24,000 bases of DNA from Chloroflexia bacterium (lineage in GTDB: Bacteria; Chloroflexota; Chloroflexia; Chloroheliales; Chloroheliaceae). The translations under genes were made by a program, and so were the position numbers. The stretch's first letter is position 1. Each line of letters begins with the position of its first letter. Where the stretch lies: NCBI GenBank assembly GCA_038245615.1, contig JBBRSG010000081.1, positions 1,069 through 25,068 on the forward strand, given 5' to 3'. Under the pieces are notes generated by a model. That model was given only the letters and a program-made list of their open reading frames with translations, was not told the origin of the DNA and made no database searches. This document shows positions 847-24,000 of the stretch, one piece after another.

Positions 847-1005
847 AAAATCTAAAATCTAAAATCTAAAATCTAAAATCGAGGGGCGGGGGTCAGTAAT
901 ATAGTTTTGAGTTTTGAGTTTTGAGTTTTGAGGTAAAAGGCCAACTACCACCCGGATTTCTTCCGTCCTCCCTGCCTTTCCCTGACCACTGACCTTAGAT
1001 TTTAG
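847..1005. repeat. Intergenic repeat element copy A, with heptamer arrays and nested inverted symmetry
   Basis: (AAAATCT)x~4.9 at 847-880. GGGGGTCAGT at 888-897. (GTTTTGA)x4 at 904-931. GGCCAACTACC at ~940-950. CTGACCACTGACC at 982-994. TTAGATTTTAG at 995-1005, the reverse complement of the left array unit. The module order is shared with copies B, D and E. Confidence 0.85.
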
Positions 1006-1757
1006 ACCCCTGCCTGTCCGATAACAAAAAAATCGCGGGTTTGTCCGGCGCTGCTTTTGGGGAAAATGCGACCTAAGATGGCTTCCAATTCTTGAGGGCT
1101 ATAGCGAATTTTCAGGACATCATGAACCGAGCCGTCATTCAAAGGGCGTTTGGCGATTTCCTCTTTGGGTCTGCCGGATTGCAGGGCCGAGTCGAAAATC
1201 AATAGATTGCCGCCGGGTCGCATAATCCGCTTGACTTCGCTCAAAAACGGGTAAATCCGGTCAGTCGGAACGTGGCTGAACCAGAAGCCAAAGAAAACCA
1301 GGTCAAAACTGCTATCTGGGAAAGGTAGCTGGTAGGCATCGCCCCGCACAAAAAGGGTCTTTTCGAGGTTAGCCGGGTCGTCCTCTTCCAGGCGGGCGCG
1401 AGTTTCAGACAGCATGGCGGGCGAATAATCGTATGCCACTAATCGTCCGGTTTCCTGCAAGCCGTGGACGAAATAAGGAGTCCATTTGCCAGTCCCACAC
1501 GCCAAATCGAGCACCCGCATTTGGGGCGCACGGGCCAGCATCCCCCCAAAGCGGGCGGCTTCGCGGCCTAACTCTGCTACCTGAGCATGCCAGGCGGCAT
1601 TGGTCGCGGGATGGTTATAGCGCCCGCGTCGGTCATACCAATCGTCATATTCGGTGGCGCGGGCTTCGTAATATTGGTGCATCGAAAGGTCAATTTCGTT
1701 TTTAGCCATTTTCCTCAAGCTTTCCTGAAAGTGCCGCTTTCCTGAACTCATCAGCAA
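1002..1757 (-). CDS. Class I SAM-dependent methyltransferase
   Basis: Motif I VLDLACGTGKWT and post-I/III region MRPGGNLLIFD. The likelier start is the ATG at 1709 (MAKNEIDL...), preceded by GAGGAAA. The longest ORF starts at 1757. Confidence 0.85.
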   Translation of the reverse strand: MLMSSGKRHFQESLRKMAKNEIDLSMHQYYEARATEYDDWYDRRGRYNHPATNAAWHAQVAELGREAARFGGMLARAPQMRVLDLACGTGKWTPYFVHGLQETGRLVAYDYSPAMLSETRARLEEDDPANLEKTLFVRGDAYQLPFPDSSFDLVFFGFWFSHVPTDRIYPFLSEVKRIMRPGGNLLIFDSALQSGRPKEEIAKRPLNDGSVHDVLKIRYSPQELEAILGRIFPKSSAGQTRDFFVIGQAGV

Positions 1758-7179: not shown

Positions 7180-7183
7180 TAGT

Positions 7184-7308
7184 GGGGTCAGAGGCTGGGG
7201 CATCGAAGGGTTGAGTTTTGAGTTTTGAATTGTAACAATTTAGCTCCAGGCGACTACCTAGCCCTCGATGGACGGGCTGAATGGTGCCTTAGATTTTCGA
7301 TTTTAGAC
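7184..7308. repeat. Intergenic repeat element copy B, between the two permease genes
   Basis: GGGGTCAG at 7184-7191. TTGAGTTTTGAGTTTTGA at 7211-7228. AATTGTAACAATT at 7228-7240. GGCGACTACC at ~7249-7258. CCTTAGATTTTCGATTTTAGAC at 7287-7308. Same module order as copy A. Confidence 0.75.
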
Positions 7309-7313
7309 AAGTT

Positions 7314-8234: not shown

Positions 8235-8241
8235 GATGCCG

Positions 8242-8266
8242 GAGGTCGGGGGTCAGGGGTCGGGAG
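8242..8266. repeat. GGTCRGG tandem (x3), a fragment resembling the left module of the repeat family
   Basis: GAGGTCGGGGGTCAGGGGTCGGGAG directly after the permease stop. Compare GGGGGTCAGT in copy A and GGGGTCAG in copy B. Confidence 0.5.
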
Positions 8267-8372
8267 ACGGGGAAATACTCTTCGTCCATCAAGTGAATTT
8301 TGATACTCAGGGCATTTGCACAAATAGGCTTTAGGGTGGTAACTATCGTGTTTTACCTCAAAAACAGTTGTG

Positions 8373-8419
8373 ATTAAATATTTGGAAAATTTACGCAGTA
8401 AATTTTCCAAATATTTAAT
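8373..8419 (+). terminator. AT-rich perfect hairpin (21-bp stem, CGCAG loop) followed by a T-run; probable intrinsic terminator of the ABC operon
   Basis: Left arm 8373-8393, loop 8394-8398 (CGCAG), right arm 8399-8419, then TTTTTT. Paralogous to the hairpin at 15844-15886. Confidence 0.6.
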
Positions 8420-9679: not shown

Positions 9680-10234
9680 TTATTCTCGGCTCATTTCGAG
9701 CAACTTGACTAATATTTGTTCCCGCAGTTCCCCGGTGGGGGGTGCAAGCTGGAACAATTCTGCAATCCAAAGCCCGTCAGTAGCCAACCGGATGATGGTT
9801 GCTATTATTGGGTCTACCCCGGCCTGTTCGGTCTGGCGTTGCCACTCGATAAAACTTTCCTGAAACGGCTTGAGCAATTGCGGATTGTTGGCGATTGCTG
9901 CCAGCAGCGCAGCATGCGTTTCGATTGTCTCCTCCCCCATCCCTACGCTGGCCCGGATATAAGCTCGCAGCCAGCTTCCTTTTTCCGTCGGGTTTTCGAC
10001 TTGCTGCAACTGTCGTTCGATTTCACCGTTAAACTCGGTGTTCAGGTGTTCTACTAGCCCCTTAATCAGGGCCTCCTTGCTGGGAAAGTGGTAGAGTAAC
10101 CCACCTTTGCTGACCCCGGCTTGGCGGGCGACGGCTTCGAGGGTCAGATGCTCTACCCCTTCGTTGAGGATAATTTGTCCGGCGGCCTGCAACAGCCCCT
10201 GCCGGGCATTCGGTTTGTTGTTCTGTTTTCCCAT
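9680..10234 (-). CDS. TetR/AcrR-family transcriptional regulator
   Basis: TetR_N HTH LTLEAVARQAGVSKGGLLYHFPSKEALI. I place the start at the ATG at 10234 (MGKQNNK...) rather than at the ORF maximum of 10297, because a consensus promoter lies inside the longer ORF. Confidence 0.88.
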   Translation of the reverse strand: MGKQNNKPNARQGLLQAAGQIILNEGVEHLTLEAVARQAGVSKGGLLYHFPSKEALIKGLVEHLNTEFNGEIERQLQQVENPTEKGSWLRAYIRASVGMGEETIETHAALLAAIANNPQLLKPFQESFIEWQRQTEQAGVDPIIATIIRLATDGLWIAELFQLAPPTGELREQILVKLLEMSRE

Positions 10235-15843: not shown

Positions 15844-15886
15844 GTTATATTTGAAAAATTTACGCAGTAAATTTTTCAAATATAAC
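15844..15886. terminator. AT-rich perfect hairpin (19-bp stem, CGCAG loop) between convergent genes; probable bidirectional terminator
   Basis: Left arm 15844-15862, loop 15863-15867, right arm 15868-15886. On the minus strand a TTTTT follows. Paralog of 8373-8419. Confidence 0.6.
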
Positions 15887-17912: not shown

Positions 17913-17923
17913 AGCTCCTTTAG

Positions 17924-18028
17924 CAGTGGTCAGTAGGCTAGTTTTGAGTTAAAATACCAATCACTAGCCGCTTTACTCAGTTCTCAGCCCTTAGCCCTGT
18001 CTTTCTCTGACCACTGACCACTGATCAC
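17924..18028. repeat. Intergenic repeat element copy D
   Basis: CAGTGGTCAGTAGG at 17924-17937. TAGTTTTGAGTTAAAA at 17939-17954. TTTACTCAG at 17972-17980. CTGACCACTGACCACTGA at 18007-18024. The ends are inverted repeats (CAGTGGTCAG / CTGACCACTG). Colinear with copy E. Confidence 0.8.
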
Positions 18029-18030
18029 AT

Positions 18031-18723
18031 TCATCCCCATTCCAAATGTTGATTGAGCCAGTTTCCGAAATCCTGCCGACTTTCGGGGCTGGTAGCGTGG
18101 GCAATCGGATATTCCTGGTAAGTGACATGGACTCCACCGACTTCCAGTATTTCGCGCACTTCGCGTCCAAGTCCCACTTTAAGCATTTGGTCCTCGATGC
18201 CGTGCGCCAGAAACGCATTTTTGTCCTTAAAGCATCCCGCCGCGATTTTTTCGGCATATTCCGGGCTGATGAAGCCGCTGTGCGGCAAAATTCCCGCCAG
18301 CTTATCAGGATAGGTCGCCGCCAGCATCAGGCTCATGGCCGCGCCTTGACTAAAACCACCTACGTAAATTTGGGTAGGGTCTACCTTCACCCCGGATAGG
18401 TCGCCCAACTGGTCAAGTAACTGCCCCAACTTCTCAAGGCTGACATCGCGCAAGCCGGGGTCGGGGCGGGCCGGTTTCGTCCATTCGTACCACTTCCAGC
18501 TACCCCGCGGATTATCGCTGACTATCCCAGGGCCACGCGGGGCCACAATCAGCACCCGTTTATCTACAAACGGCACGAGTTCGTATATATCACTTTCGTT
18601 TGCGCCCCAACCGTGAAGCATAATCAGGGCCGGATGTGCGCTTGGGCCAGGCTCAGGCCGTCGTATCAAGGCTGGTAGCGCCCCACTGGTAATCAACTCC
18701 GTTCCGCTTATATCAGGTTCCAT
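18031..18723 (-). CDS. Alpha/beta hydrolase (phospholipase/carboxylesterase, Abhydrolase_2-like)
   Basis: Oxyanion region MLHGWGANE, nucleophile elbow GFSQGA, late acidic residue and His (GIEDQ..., PIAH). AAGGAG lies 8 nt upstream. Confidence 0.85.
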   Translation of the reverse strand: MEPDISGTELITSGALPALIRRPEPGPSAHPALIMLHGWGANESDIYELVPFVDKRVLIVAPRGPGIVSDNPRGSWKWYEWTKPARPDPGLRDVSLEKLGQLLDQLGDLSGVKVDPTQIYVGGFSQGAAMSLMLAATYPDKLAGILPHSGFISPEYAEKIAAGCFKDKNAFLAHGIEDQMLKVGLGREVREILEVGGVHVTYQEYPIAHATSPESRQDFGNWLNQHLEWG

Positions 18724-18830
18724 ATTTGCTACTCCTTATTAACCACCGCCAGCCCAGATAAGGCTATACTTGACATAAATACACTAACCAACTACCAAAG
18801 ATTACCATTCAAGAATCTACTTGATTAAAT

Positions 18831-19553
18831 CTAGTCTTTCAGCGACTTTAGCACGTTTTTGAGAAAGATAGCTTCCGGGACTGCGCCTTCCACCTCGACT
18901 TTTTCATTGAAAATAATTTTCGGAACGCCGTAGACATAATATTGCTGCGAGAGTTCCTGAAATTCGTTGGCCTCGACAATATCCGCCGTGATGTGAGGAC
19001 TGACCATAGCGAAGTGGTTTGCCATCCGCACCGCGGACGGACAATAACTTCAGGTAGGAGTGACAAACACCACGATATTCACCGGCTGATTTATTTCGCC
19101 GACTAAGCGTCGAGTATTTTCGGTCAGGGTGGTTTGGCCTTTGGACAGGTCTATCAGGTTTTCGACCAGCGTACCGAATTCGTAGCCACTGGGAATCCCG
19201 AAAAAGCGGGACTGCCCGGCTAACTTTTCAGCCCGATAAACCGCCGCGGGCAATAGCGAACCGTCCAGCCCGACCGCTTCGGCGGCTTGCTGGCCGTCGG
19301 GGCTATCCAGATCATTAAATTTTAGGTTGAGCTGGGGAGCGATTTCGGTCAGTTCGGCATAAAGCTGGAAAGCGGTGCGGCAAGCCTCCCCGACCATCAG
19401 GGCTGCATCCTCGCTCTCCGGGTCGAATAGCTCGGCGGCCTCAGCCGTATGAAAACTTCCCCGTGAGAAAAACTCGATTTCAACTGGCTGTTCCAGTTCT
19501 TGCCCAAAATGCTGCTCTAAATATTCGCGGTCTTCTTCCCCGATAAGCGCCAT
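18831..19553 (-). CDS. Two-domain thioredoxin-fold protein (PDO / glutaredoxin-like domain family) with in-frame TGA read as selenocysteine (U-S-Y-C); 240 aa
   Basis: The tracked ORFs 19050..19553 and 18831..19031 are in the same frame, separated only by the TGA (19050-19052) and six sense codons. The joined sequence reads ...VNIVVFVTPT-U-SYCPSAVRMANHFAMVSPHITADIVEANEF...YGVPKIIFN...VEGAVPE. This is colinear with the second CPYC domain of Pyrococcus PDO-type proteins (VFVTPTCPYCPLAVRMAHKFA...), recalled from memory. Confidence 0.8.
19019..19044 (-). promoter_or_regulatory. Candidate bacterial SECIS hairpin downstream of the TGA
   Basis: mRNA: UGA-AGUUA-UUG(U)CCGUCCG-CGGUG-CGGAUGGCAA. The 7-bp upper stem includes one G-U pair. 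A 3-bp lower stem lies after a bulged U. The GGU-containing apical loop starts 16 nt after the UGA. Confidence 0.6.
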
Positions 19554-19578
19554 TTCTTTAGTCTACTTTCTTTTTTAG

Positions 19579-19700
19579 CAGTGGTCAGTGGTTAGTAGGG
19601 TAGTTTTGAGTTAAACTGCCAAGTATTACCTATATTTACTCAGCACTTAGCAATCAGCACTCAGGACTTTTCTGACCACTGGACACTGACCACTGACCAC
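19579..19700. repeat. Intergenic repeat element copy E
   Basis: CAGTGGTCAGTGG at 19579-19591. TAGTTTTGAGTTAAAC at 19601-19616. TTTACTCAG at 19635-19643. CTGACCACTGGACACTGACCACTGACCAC at 19672-19700. Colinear with copy D. Confidence 0.8.
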
Positions 19701-19757
19701 TTTTATCCCGACAATTGTAACCCAGGCAGGCGGTTGGCGCAAACCGGGGGTGTCTCG

Positions 19758-19831: not shown

Positions 19832-21607
19832 ATGGAGCTAAAAGACCAAGCCGGGCAAGTTTTTGATATAGCTACGGTGGCCCAATCCGAACACGCCGCT
19901 CGCACCACTCTGCTTTGGCGGCGGCACTGGGTTGGGTTGACCCTGAGCGCAATTTTGATATTAGCGGCGGGGCTGCGTTTATTTGTGCTGTTCAAAACCC
20001 ACTTTATTGCTGATGGCGATGAAGCCCTGACCGGGGTGATGGCGATAGATATTCTCAAAGGCGAAAGGCCGATTTTCACTTATGGACAGGCCTATATGGG
20101 GGCGGCGGAAGCTTATTTCACTGCCGCCATATACGCGATACTGGGGGTGTCGAGTTGGGGCATGAAAATCGCGCCGCTGTTGGCCTCGCTAGGGGTGATA
20201 GCTCTGAATTACGCGGTAGCCCGGCGCTATCTGGATCATCCGCTGGCGGGGTTGGGGGCGGCGGCTCTGACGGCGTTCCCCTCGCTCTATTTCTTGATGA
20301 TTGGGCTGCGGGCCTGGAATCACTATATCGAAACCTTGCTAGTCGGCAATCTCTTGTTTTTAGTGAGCTATAGCCTTATCTGGGGGAAAGCCGCCGATAT
20401 AATCGTGCCGCGCTTTTGGGGCTATGCCAGCCGGGAATGGCTTCAATGGGGTTTGCTTGGCTTACTGGCGGGCTATGGCTTTTACGGGCATATGATTATC
20501 GTCTATTACTATTTGCCGATAGTCTTCTTTTTGTTCCTGAAAGATAAGCTCTTTGCCGTGCGCCTAACCGCCCTGGCGACGATTGGTGGGTTCTTCCTCG
20601 GCAGCTTGCCCTGGTGGGTCTATAATCTGCAAAATAATTGGGCCACCCTCACCTATTTTCTTCGACCATCAGGCCGTAAAGAGGCCGCTTTAGACGTGTT
20701 GGGCCATTATGCTCAATTTTCATGGCCGCTCGCCACCGGCGGTTTTAATTACTGGTATCTGACCAGCCCGGTGATTAGCACTTTTCTGAATGTAGTCTTT
20801 GGGCTAGGTCTGGTGGGTTGGCTGGTAGCTCGCTGGCGGGGGCTGGCGGGCTGGCTGCGGTTGTCGCTAAAGCCCGCCCAGCCAGTAGATTTGCTTTTGA
20901 TGTTCGTGCTGGTTTCACCTCTGATTTACGTGGTCTGGGGAGTGGGCAATGTGGCTTTCACCGATTTGGATACCACCGGGCGCTATTTACTGCCCTTGCT
21001 GGGTATTCTGCCGGTCTTGGTTGGGGGTGGCCTTGCCCGACTCGCCGAAACCTTGTCTTCTCGTCTGAAATGGACGACTGCGCCCAAAAAATGGTTGCCG
21101 TTAGCTCTGGCGGGTCTGGTATTGCTGGGGATTATTAGTTCAAACCTGTATATGTACCGCTTCGCCGACTTTATCGCGGTCAGTCAATCACCCTATTTTC
21201 CGCAATTGCGTCCGCCGGTGGATAACGGCCCGCTAATCAGCTATCTCAAAAGCCAGGGAGTCGAGTATGCCAATTGCAATCATTGGGTCGGGCATCGGCT
21301 GATTCTCGATTCGGCAGAGGCGGTCAAGTGCGTGGATTATCACGATTTGACGGTTGGCGGTCTTGACCGCTTTCCGCAATACAGCAAAATTGCACTCCAG
21401 CCGGGCCAAAAAGTGGCCTTTGTTCTGCTCAATCTGGACGATGGTTTGCCGGGGCGGGAAGGCGCAGCCCTCGGCATGGAAAACCGTCTCAAGGCTCTGG
21501 GAGTAACTTATACTCGCCAGGATTTCCCGCCTTATTTGGTCTTCATCCCGACTTCGCGCCCGGTCAGCCCGACTGAGGTAGTGGAACAGATAAGGTATCC
21601 GTTTTAG
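19832..21607 (+). CDS. GT-C fold membrane glycosyltransferase (family 39 / ArnT / PMT_2-like)
   Basis: 591 aa and highly polytopic. Acidic first-loop motif ADGDEALTG directly after TM1, with a ~140-aa C-terminal soluble domain. Confidence 0.82.
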   Translation: MELKDQAGQVFDIATVAQSEHAARTTLLWRRHWVGLTLSAILILAAGLRLFVLFKTHFIADGDEALTGVMAIDILKGERPIFTYGQAYMGAAEAYFTAAIYAILGVSSWGMKIAPLLASLGVIALNYAVARRYLDHPLAGLGAAALTAFPSLYFLMIGLRAWNHYIETLLVGNLLFLVSYSLIWGKAADIIVPRFWGYASREWLQWGLLGLLAGYGFYGHMIIVYYYLPIVFFLFLKDKLFAVRLTALATIGGFFLGSLPWWVYNLQNNWATLTYFLRPSGRKEAALDVLGHYAQFSWPLATGGFNYWYLTSPVISTFLNVVFGLGLVGWLVARWRGLAGWLRLSLKPAQPVDLLLMFVLVSPLIYVVWGVGNVAFTDLDTTGRYLLPLLGILPVLVGGGLARLAETLSSRLKWTTAPKKWLPLALAGLVLLGIISSNLYMYRFADFIAVSQSPYFPQLRPPVDNGPLISYLKSQGVEYANCNHWVGHRLILDSAEAVKCVDYHDLTVGGLDRFPQYSKIALQPGQKVAFVLLNLDDGLPGREGAALGMENRLKALGVTYTRQDFPPYLVFIPTSRPVSPTEVVEQIRYPF

Positions 21608-23368: not shown

Positions 23369-23560
23369 GTGTTGAGGAAAGCTTACATAGCTCAACTGCA
23401 TCAGCATCTGGATGAGATGCGTAATAATGGAGATTTGACCGAAACGCCCCATACCAGCCGTAGTAATAGTGCCGTCGCCGAAAAACCGACCAAAAAGGTC
23501 AAGTTTTTGCGGATTCTGACCGGCAAAAAAGGCCAATCCAACACTCACTGGGATAGTTAA
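23369..23560 (+). CDS. Candidate 63-aa hydrophilic, basic small protein
   Basis: A GTG at 23369 has GAAGGAG at 23355-23361 (7-nt spacer). A candidate promoter lies upstream and a hairpin immediately downstream. No family recognised. Confidence 0.45.
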   Translation: MLRKAYIAQLHQHLDEMRNNGDLTETPHTSRSNSAVAEKPTKKVKFLRILTGKKGQSNTHWDS

Positions 23561-23561
23561 A

Positions 23562-23602
23562 TAGTTTTGAGTTTTGGGTTTTAATTCAGCTAACTCAAAA
23601 TT
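23562..23602. repeat. Repeat-family fragment F forming a hairpin
   Basis: TAGTTTTGAGTTTTGGGTTTT at 23562-23582. TTTTGAGTT (23565-23573) pairs with AACTCAAAA (23592-23600). It sits between convergent genes and overlaps the GntR-family stop codon. Confidence 0.5.
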
Positions 23603-24000
23603 TGTGAAGTCCTTGTAGGACTGAGTGTTCAACGCTATCGAGGTGCTGCCACATTTGGTGGCGGGCGGCGTTTGCGTCCCGTTGCAAGATAGCCGCGACA
23701 ATGGCACTATGCTCGCCCGCAGAGCGAGCCGGACGACCCGGAATCCGCAAACTCTCCTGCCGACCCTCCGCCAGTAAATCCAGCAAATTTAGCATTATCC
23801 GCAATAAAATTCCGTTTTGGGCCGCTTCCGCTACCCCGATATGAAAATCCAGGTCGAATTGGGCCAGGGCTGCCGGGTCGTCCAGGCTAGTATTGGCGTT
23901 GGCGGCAATCCTTTCCAGGTGGGTCAGTTGTTCCGGGCTACCGCGCAATGCGGCCCAACCCGCCGCCTCTACCTCGATTAGTTTCCTGATTTCAAATAAT
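23595..24000 (-). CDS. GntR/FadR-family regulator, FCD ligand-binding domain (5' end beyond the window)
   Basis: The frame stays open to base 24000 (LFEIRKLIEVEAAGWAALRGSPEQL...FHIGVAEAAQNGILL...EHSAIVAAILQRDANAA), which is the typical FCD pattern. The N-terminal wHTH must lie outside the window. Confidence 0.8.
   Translation of the reverse strand, partial: LFEIRKLIEVEAAGWAALRGSPEQLTHLERIAANANTSLDDPAALAQFDLDFHIGVAEAAQNGILLRIMLNLLDLLAEGRQESLRIPGRPARSAGEHSAIVAAILQRDANAARHQMWQHLDSVEHSVLQGLHKF

Follow-up and report, generated by a model that had tools for sequence, protein, structure and literature searches.

A 24,000-nt stretch of a Chloroflexia bacterium genome (contig JBBRSG010000081.1, positions 1,069 to 25,068; hereafter, the window) contains three related intergenic elements, termed A, D and E. 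We think these probably represent a lineage-specific dispersed family within a known class of intergenic heptamer repeats, namely hairpin elements that resemble the short tandemly repeated repetitive (STRR) sequences. The copies are paralogous, were gained recently, and share their heptamer-array architecture with repeats in other phyla. A core of ∼60 nt between the arrays is common to all three, and the copies are 72–81% identical overall. An earlier, sequence-only reading of D and E had proposed either a dispersed structural repeat, akin to a repetitive extragenic palindrome (REP) or a MITE (miniature inverted-repeat transposable element), or a cis-regulatory leader shared by an iron–sulfur enzyme and a redox protein. 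The first proposal comes closest and is essentially right as regards a dispersed repeat, although a terminator acting in the sense direction, which it included, found no support and the element is better labeled a heptamer-array (STRR-like) hairpin.

D and E lie upstream of genes encoding aconitase and a thioredoxin-fold selenoprotein, respectively. As that reading had described, both end close to a start codon: D stops 23 nt short of the aconitase ATG (17900), and E stops 25 nt short of the selenoprotein ATG. It had also aligned the two copies end to end in the same orientation, and indeed, on the minus strand, they are colinear with 88 of 109 positions identical (81%). Gaps in the alignment coincide with differences in heptamer copy number, amounting to 12 nt in the 5′ arm, 7 nt in the 3′ arm and 3 nt in an internal array. 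A BLASTN query of the window with D recovered the two other copies, with E values of 2.7e-14 for E and 1e-6 for A. With one mismatch allowed, the arm sequence CAGTGGTCAG was counted 10 times in the window versus 0.59 expected. A search for the core TTGGnnnTTTAnCTCAAAACT with up to three mismatches (0.07 matches expected) gave exactly three exact occurrences, one per copy (A, D, E) and each on the minus strand.

The ends of D and E are inverted repeats, with arms of 10–17 nt that are 94% complementary in E. The inversion had been recognized before, but these are not simple terminal inverted repeats. Tandem Repeats Finder resolved them into inverted tandem arrays of the heptamer CAGTGGT/ACCACTG, with more heptamer arrays inside; period-7 arrays within the copies have the units CTGACCA, ACTCAGC, AGTTTTG and AAAATCT. 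In D, the 5′ arm holds about three CAGTGGT-type units and the 3′ arm one and a half. The CTAAA previously seen after the 3′ arm is present in both copies and may mark the true 3′ end of the element. The long closed hairpin that had been suggested is borne out by structure prediction, with folding energies of –37.5 kcal/mol for D (z –3.4) and –48.5 kcal/mol for E (z –5.0). Within it, an inner helix reads GGCTAGT/ACTAGCC in D versus AGGTAAT/ACTACCC in E, showing the one compensatory swap already reported and two mismatches, both A–C.

Orthologous sites were compared. The window aconitase is 79% identical to a protein from a "Chloroflexia bacterium" metagenome-assembled genome (MAG); for the permease, identity to a protein of Candidatus Chlorohelix is 67%. 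In the closest sequenced relative, GCA_038210655.1 (L003), the aconitase is 89% identical and the selenoprotein–hydrolase–aconitase gene order is kept. The element is absent from both orthologous intergenic regions of L003, upstream of aconitase and upstream of the selenoprotein gene, and from the region upstream of aconitase in four further relatives (L004–L007); nhmmer found no copy anywhere in the L003 and L004–L007 loci. The hydrolase proteins of the window and L003 end at the same position, and D lies just past the unchanged stop codon. Between two ABC permease genes, the spacer is 134 nt here, filled by another copy (B), versus 15 nt and 4 nt in relatives. Because the element is missing at the orthologous sites and the spacer is short in relatives, this comparison indicates that the copies at their present sites are gains that postdate the split from the closest sequenced relative, rather than conserved leaders.

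Other hairpin repeats were seen in these relatives. Upstream of aconitase, L003 (9834–9909; also L004) has a long GTAG-headed palindrome made of CTGTAGGAGCGAGCTTCTGCTCGCGATT and its inverse, and L005 (about 9740–9810) has one made of TTTGTAGGAGTGCCGTCCCCGGCACGAT and its inverse. These look like classical REP elements or REPINs (REP doublets forming hairpins), and one intergenic slot therefore seems to have been colonized by different hairpin repeats in different lineages. Between the DinB and DSBA genes of L003 (13770–13890), an analogous hairpin is built from a different heptamer, (GGATGAG)n...(CTCATCC)n; its center has GGACTGAGTAGTCCGG, which weakly resembles the CTGAGTAAA region in D and E. 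Another resemblance, between AGGTAATACTTGGCAG in the E core (window 19602–19630) and AGGTAATAACTTGGCAC, the Shine–Dalgarno sequence and TTG start of the L003 selenoprotein gene (L003 8170–8195), is close but probably due to chance.

Larger collections were searched with the core and the arms. A strict pattern of left arm plus core gave two matches in genome collections, both in coding sequence (of an uncultured cyanobacterium and a Bacteroidaceae MAG) and both chance matches, and none in metagenomes. Because the strict pattern returned nothing else, the core of D, E and A appears to be private to this lineage. A core-only pattern matched viral contigs 26 times, in each case a conserved phage gene segment without heptamer arrays, and a core-only hidden Markov model found nothing in all fetched loci beyond those chosen by the pattern itself. 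A blastn search of E against a plasmid collection gave no match. The arms-only pattern (CAGTGGTCAG, 60–90 nt, CTGACCACTG) matched at least 120 loci in soil, peat and rhizosphere metagenomes. Class-level figures given from here on are for the matches listed. Nearly all of these are pairs of inverted arrays, typically with ∼5 heptamers per side, in which the unit is CAGTGGT or a variant (CAGTGGC, CAGTGAT, CAGTTGT, CAGTGAA, CAGTAGT). The centers have a median length of 42 nt and, but for a few near-duplicate loci, are mutually unrelated; none matches the D/E core. At 22 loci, further arrays lie nearby with other centers and sometimes other units, even on one contig. Carriers were labeled from the proteins looked up, directly or via cluster members at 90% identity, and the labels include Blastocatellia, Pyrinomonadaceae, Ca. 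Dormibacteraeota, Ca. Binatus/Ca. Sulfotelmatobacter and Aphanizomenon/Anabaena; the contigs are labeled Acidobacteriota, Dormibacterota and Nostocales.

Based on an approximate, GC3-filtered gene call, the arrays lie between tandem genes in 63 cases, divergent genes in 13 and convergent genes in 9, with 6 inside an open reading frame (ORF). Stop codons facing an array are a median of 2 nt away, and 74% fall within –25 to +15 nt; start codons are a median of 14.5 nt from the array. At the level of the class, inverted CAGTnnn arrays in several phyla occupy the gap that separates a stop codon from the ribosome-binding site of the next gene, and stop-codon abutment is partly established as a cross-phylum regularity. 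Mirrored order of heptamer variants between the two arms would imply selection for pairing or foldback synthesis, and no such mirroring was detected in 109 elements (Wilcoxon P = 0.53). On the Aphanizomenon/Anabaena contig L116 (4925–5024), one array mixes CCACTGA, CAACTGA, TAACTGA and CAACCGA units, and this array links the CAGTGGT heptamer of the window directly to the published TAACTGA repeats.

The copies beyond D and E show how the family sits among genes (Table 1). A cupin gene lies downstream of copy A, which has the same relative orientation, as had been noted. Its outer arrays, (TCTAAAA)n and (ATTTTAG)n, also readable as (TTTTAGA)n, surround inner GGTCAGTGGTCAG...CTGACC arms, and it has the core of D and E (944–924) plus (CAAAACT)x4. 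The stop codon of a methyltransferase gene (TAA, 1004–1002) falls inside its first heptamer, and A ends 16 nt before the cupin ATG. In a 141-nt window, A folds no better than shuffled sequences (z +0.9). B aligns with A at a score of 35 versus 7.7 ± 4.5 for shuffles, and is oriented opposite to the plus-strand ABC permease genes of the peptide-transporter operon in which it lies. C, between the second ABC permease gene and another methyltransferase gene, shows no significant similarity over its whole length. All seven heptamer arrays of the 24-kb window (7/7) are between ORFs, and ∼20-kb stretches of relatives have none to three. The genes flanking A–E are functionally unrelated: in addition to those named, D follows an alpha/beta hydrolase gene, and E separates the selenoprotein gene from a divergent glycosyltransferase-like gene.

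Table 1. Heptamer-array copies in the window, their parts and nearby features
Feature	Coordinates	Strand	Description
Copy A	847..1014	–	72–74% identical to D/E (D–A 72%, E–A 74%)
Copy B	7180..7309	–	Divergent relative, colinear with A via modules GGGGTCAG, (AGTTTTG)n, (TTTTAGA)n
Copy C	8241..8366	+	Degenerate; (GGGGTCR)n array, GGGTGGTA...TTTTACCTCAAAA like A; without 3′ arm
Copy D	17924..18028	–	105-nt element, hydrolase–aconitase intergenic region
D 5′ arm	18028–18007	–	(GTGATCA)(GTGGTCA)x2, then GCTGAGA-type internal heptamers
D core	17960–17940	–	TTGGTATTTTAACTCAAAACT
D 3′ arm	17934–17924	–	ACTGACCACTG
CTAAA directly 3′ of D	17919..17923	–	Same CTAAA after E at 19574–19578
Copy E	19579..19700	–	122-nt element, upstream of selenoprotein gene
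E 5′ arm	19700–19672	–	Four GTGGTCA-type heptamers
E internal array	19668–19638	–	Four GCTGAGT-type heptamers
E core	19622–19602	–	
E 3′ arm	19592–19579	–	Two ACCACTG units
Promoter-like block upstream of E	19714..19743	–	TTTGCGC-17 nt-TACAAT; putative function
Fragment F	23551..23600	–	(CAAAACT)n + ACTATTTAACTATCCCAGTG; overlaps TGA stop of ORF 23595–23948
Period-7 arrays (Tandem Repeats Finder)	847–880, 903–932, 18007–18028, 19638–19668, 19672–19701		

Five of the six elements start on the upstream stop codon or 0–6 nt after it: D begins 2 nt past the hydrolase stop codon (18033–18031), C 6 nt and B 0 nt past theirs, and A and F overlap theirs. E is the exception, being situated 13 nt downstream of a TACAAT box. 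The promoter-like block that ends in this box is the only part of this intergenic region conserved with L003, and it scores below the threshold of a consensus scan. Because of its position downstream of the conserved box, E probably lies inside the 5′ untranslated region (UTR) of the selenoprotein mRNA, where it would be transcribed from about +7.

Several known repeats resemble the element. STRR sequences are 7-bp repeats of unknown function, with hairpin-forming examples in filamentous cyanobacteria (PMC2670836); the heptamers of Mazel et al. (1990) are cited in PMC4692102. According to PMC4692102, and to Mrazek (2007) as summarized in PMC4679880, heptamer repeats occur in excess in the intergenic DNA of some bacteria. 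Like STRR sequences, the elements described here consist of tandem 7-nt units, are intergenic, are often capable of forming hairpins and differ in their number of units. Among the three classical STRR units, two (CCCCAGT and CAACAGT) have the nnnCAGT form of CAGTGGT. Unlike STRR sequences, the window elements are found in a host that is Chloroflexia-like and related to Ca. Chlorohelix, not cyanobacterial, although related arrays do occur on the Nostocales contig L116. Moreover, the arrays here are paired as inverted arms, and those of D, E and A enclose the conserved core, which makes them a dispersed family and more than a simple-sequence tract.

TAACTGA heptamer arrays have been described across Beggiatoaceae, Cyanobacteria and Bacteroidetes, with a patchy distribution and unexplained spread (MacGregor 2015, PMC4679880). 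The unit CCACTGA differs from TAACTGA only in its first two bases, and in both cases the repeats are intergenic, lie near start codons in forward orientation, differ by 7-nt indels and are scattered across phyla. Yet direct repeats make up nearly all of the TAACTGA sets (one inverted in 170), which end ∼1 nt before the start codon (PMC4679880), whereas the arrays here are inverted pairs that form long stems and sit tighter to stop codons than to start codons. Like REPs, bacterial interspersed mosaic elements and REPINs (PMC3116915, PMC2817692, PMC3733652), the elements are abundant hairpin repeats outside genes, found between cistrons and directly behind stop codons, and their presence differs from one relative to another. 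A REP is an imperfect palindrome of 20–40 nt with a GTAG or CGTC head, and is tied to REP-associated tyrosine transposases (PMC3116915, PMC2817692, PMC3733652). D and E, by comparison, span 105–122 nt and have tandem-heptamer arms, and the GTAG palindromes of L003 and L005 are unrelated to them in sequence. The element, then, is not a new kind of system; its unusual feature is the conserved core between the arrays. A literature search for the CAGTGGT array sequence found no paper, and to our knowledge a heptamer hairpin element of this kind has not been described in this phylum. Heptamer hairpins long known from cyanobacteria extend, with the same CAGT-type unit, to Chlorohelix-like Chloroflexia and to abundant soil phyla. 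Stop-codon abutment, together with a family that has a traceable core, could make it easier to test how heptamer repeats arise and spread.

We propose the following account of such a family. The outer inverted CAGTGGT/ACCACTG arrays would close a long hairpin around the lineage-private core, and arm length would change in 7-nt steps, most simply by replication slippage. Copies that are transcribed would form very stable, self-contained stem-loops, E within the selenoprotein 5′ UTR and D, A and B between cistrons. Any effect of these stem-loops would be of a general kind, for example hindering exonucleases or acting as a pause site, rather than specific to a gene. The lack of target-site duplications suggests a copying route other than classical cut-and-paste; single-strand hairpin-dependent (HUH-type) copying or template switching between arrays might serve, though both are speculative. 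A Ca. Chlorohelix relative (L155/L156, 13019–14134) has an IS605 OrfB/TnpB (Cas12f-like) gene 2 kb from the permease operon. Judging from this gene, hairpin-dependent IS200/IS605 elements exist in the lineage, with no shown link to the heptamer elements.

Some points weigh against this account. Copy count and orientation come from the 24-kb window, and mobility is deduced from paralogy and presence/absence, with no transposase, target-site duplication or donor element found. The conserved core lacks an explanation. A, D, E and C point the same way with respect to the gene that follows them, and each of the four copies in tandem context (4/4) folds better on the mRNA-sense strand, which with so few copies could be chance. 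Uniform orientation and better sense-strand folding may leave room for a role at the RNA level.

A broader alternative is that inverted CAGTnnn arrays at stop codons form one cross-phylum class, made or used by conserved machinery such as a hairpin-dependent enzyme acting on single-stranded DNA or a nucleic-acid-binding protein. We regard this as a minority possibility. If true, D, E and A would be a rare case in which the arms enclose a conserved core, providing a handle for tracing the copying.

That the copies are a classical MITE, moved by cut-and-paste by a transposase that is encoded elsewhere in the genome and recognizes CAGTGGTCAG/CTGACCACTG as terminal inverted repeats, seems improbable. 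Their size, non-coding nature, inverted ends, intergenic location and occurrence in several copies do recall bacterial MITEs (PMC10969869, PMC11602168), as does their presence or absence at orthologous sites. Yet no consistent target-site duplication, for which the sequence-only reading had suggested a check, was found at the flanks of D (ATGTGAT/CTAAAGG), B (TAATAG/CAAGTT) or E; TAAAA is on both sides of E only. The ends are tandem arrays of variable length rather than fixed repeats, and no transposase is among the window-encoded proteins. The wider class has unrelated centers between the same arms, even within one contig, which is unexpected for a single mobile unit.

It is also doubtful that the arrays are primarily selected modules at gene 3′ ends, serving as terminators or attenuators or, like REPs, as 3′ stabilizers of the upstream mRNA, with dispersal being secondary. 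This idea draws on the close abutment to stop codons, both in the class and for A–D and F in the window, and on the stability of the predicted folds, with a class mean of about –60 kcal/mol. In addition, the left flank is A-rich in 19% of cases and the right flank T-rich in 28%, versus 5% of random 7-mers, which hints at bidirectional terminators in a subset; the enrichment is overstated, since the random 7-mers were drawn from whole loci and not from intergenic DNA. However, an intrinsic terminator scan in the sense direction found nothing at D and E, where no U-tract follows the stems (3′ flanks CTAAAGG and CTAAAAAA). E lies between divergent genes, and divergent contexts are not depleted in the class (13 of 85 two-sided cases). 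Nor does folding favor the mRNA-sense strand in the class (P = 0.054, with the difference running the other way).

Very unlikely, in our judgment, is a post-transcriptional network like that proposed for the TAACTGA repeats, in which the arrays would be multivalent sites for a protein that binds single-stranded nucleic acid (such as S1, Csp or CsrA). The 3′ arm does read CCACTGA in the TAACTGA register, differing in the two first bases, and lies in forward orientation 18–25 nt before start codons; the mixed TAACTGA/CAACTGA/CCACTGA array on the Nostocales contig fits as well (PMC4679880). But in D and E each array is predicted to pair with its inverted counterpart and so would not be single-stranded, no candidate protein was identified, and relatives lack the arrays at orthologous sites.

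RNA-level tests bear on the remaining idea, a 5′ leader, such as a riboswitch or an RNA bound by a protein, through which aconitase and the selenoprotein would be regulated together. Rfam, which the sequence-only reading had proposed to search, gave no match at gathering scores, and at permissive thresholds only two chance-level, snoRNA-like matches (E > 2). The consensus fold of A, D and E shows little variation in its outer stem, and 2 of 26 pairs are changed on both sides; the alifold covariation term is +1.22, an unfavorable sign that with three sequences is uninformative. When folded together with the element, the ribosome-binding site and start regions downstream of D and E are 0.62 and 0.69 unpaired, so the predicted hairpins do not appear to sequester the ribosome-binding sites. 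CAGUG is the loop motif of iron-responsive elements, and a version of the leader idea would have the heptamer bound by apo-aconitase; we rejected it, as CAGUG is placed within stems instead of an apical loop and arrays of the same kind are found at many unrelated genes. Despite the shared orientation 23–25 nt before start codons, the stable predicted folds, the CAGUG in the heptamer and the one compensatory swap, a shared leader is hardly credible and largely refuted by the ortholog comparison, given its absence from both L003 sites and four other aconitase upstream regions, its occurrence before a cupin gene (A) and, in reverse, between ABC transporter genes (B), the lack of an Rfam match, the open ribosome-binding sites and the same arms at the 120 or more unrelated loci, in other phyla. 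For annotation of the window, this disposes of a tempting but false lead, namely that a common leader couples the regulation of aconitase to that of the selenoprotein.

A few further features of the window were recorded. Intergenic DNA of the window has two copies (8373–8419 and 15844–15886; 37 nt at 95% identity) of a perfect, AT-rich palindrome, ATTAAATATTTGGAAAATTTAC-GCA-GTAAATTTTCCAAATATTTAAT, whose arms are 22 nt long. The first copy directly follows C, and a pair of convergent genes flanks the second, beside the 3′ end of the aconitase gene; none was found in the fetched loci. The palindrome may serve as an operator or a bidirectional terminator, or it may represent a further small repeat family. 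A 27-nt inverted pair (18753–18779 and 20358–20384) is 81% complementary, and both members have TATAGCCTTATCTGGG. The thioredoxin-fold gene (18832–19553, minus strand) has an in-frame TGA at 19052–19050, within a U-x-x-C motif (VTPT*SYCPSAVRMA), and gene callers split it into ORFs of 167 and 60 aa. A hairpin predicted after the UGA (–20.8 kcal/mol, z –2.8) is consistent with a bacterial selenocysteine insertion sequence. The in-frame TGA is conserved in L003 (VTPT*GYCPSAVRMA).

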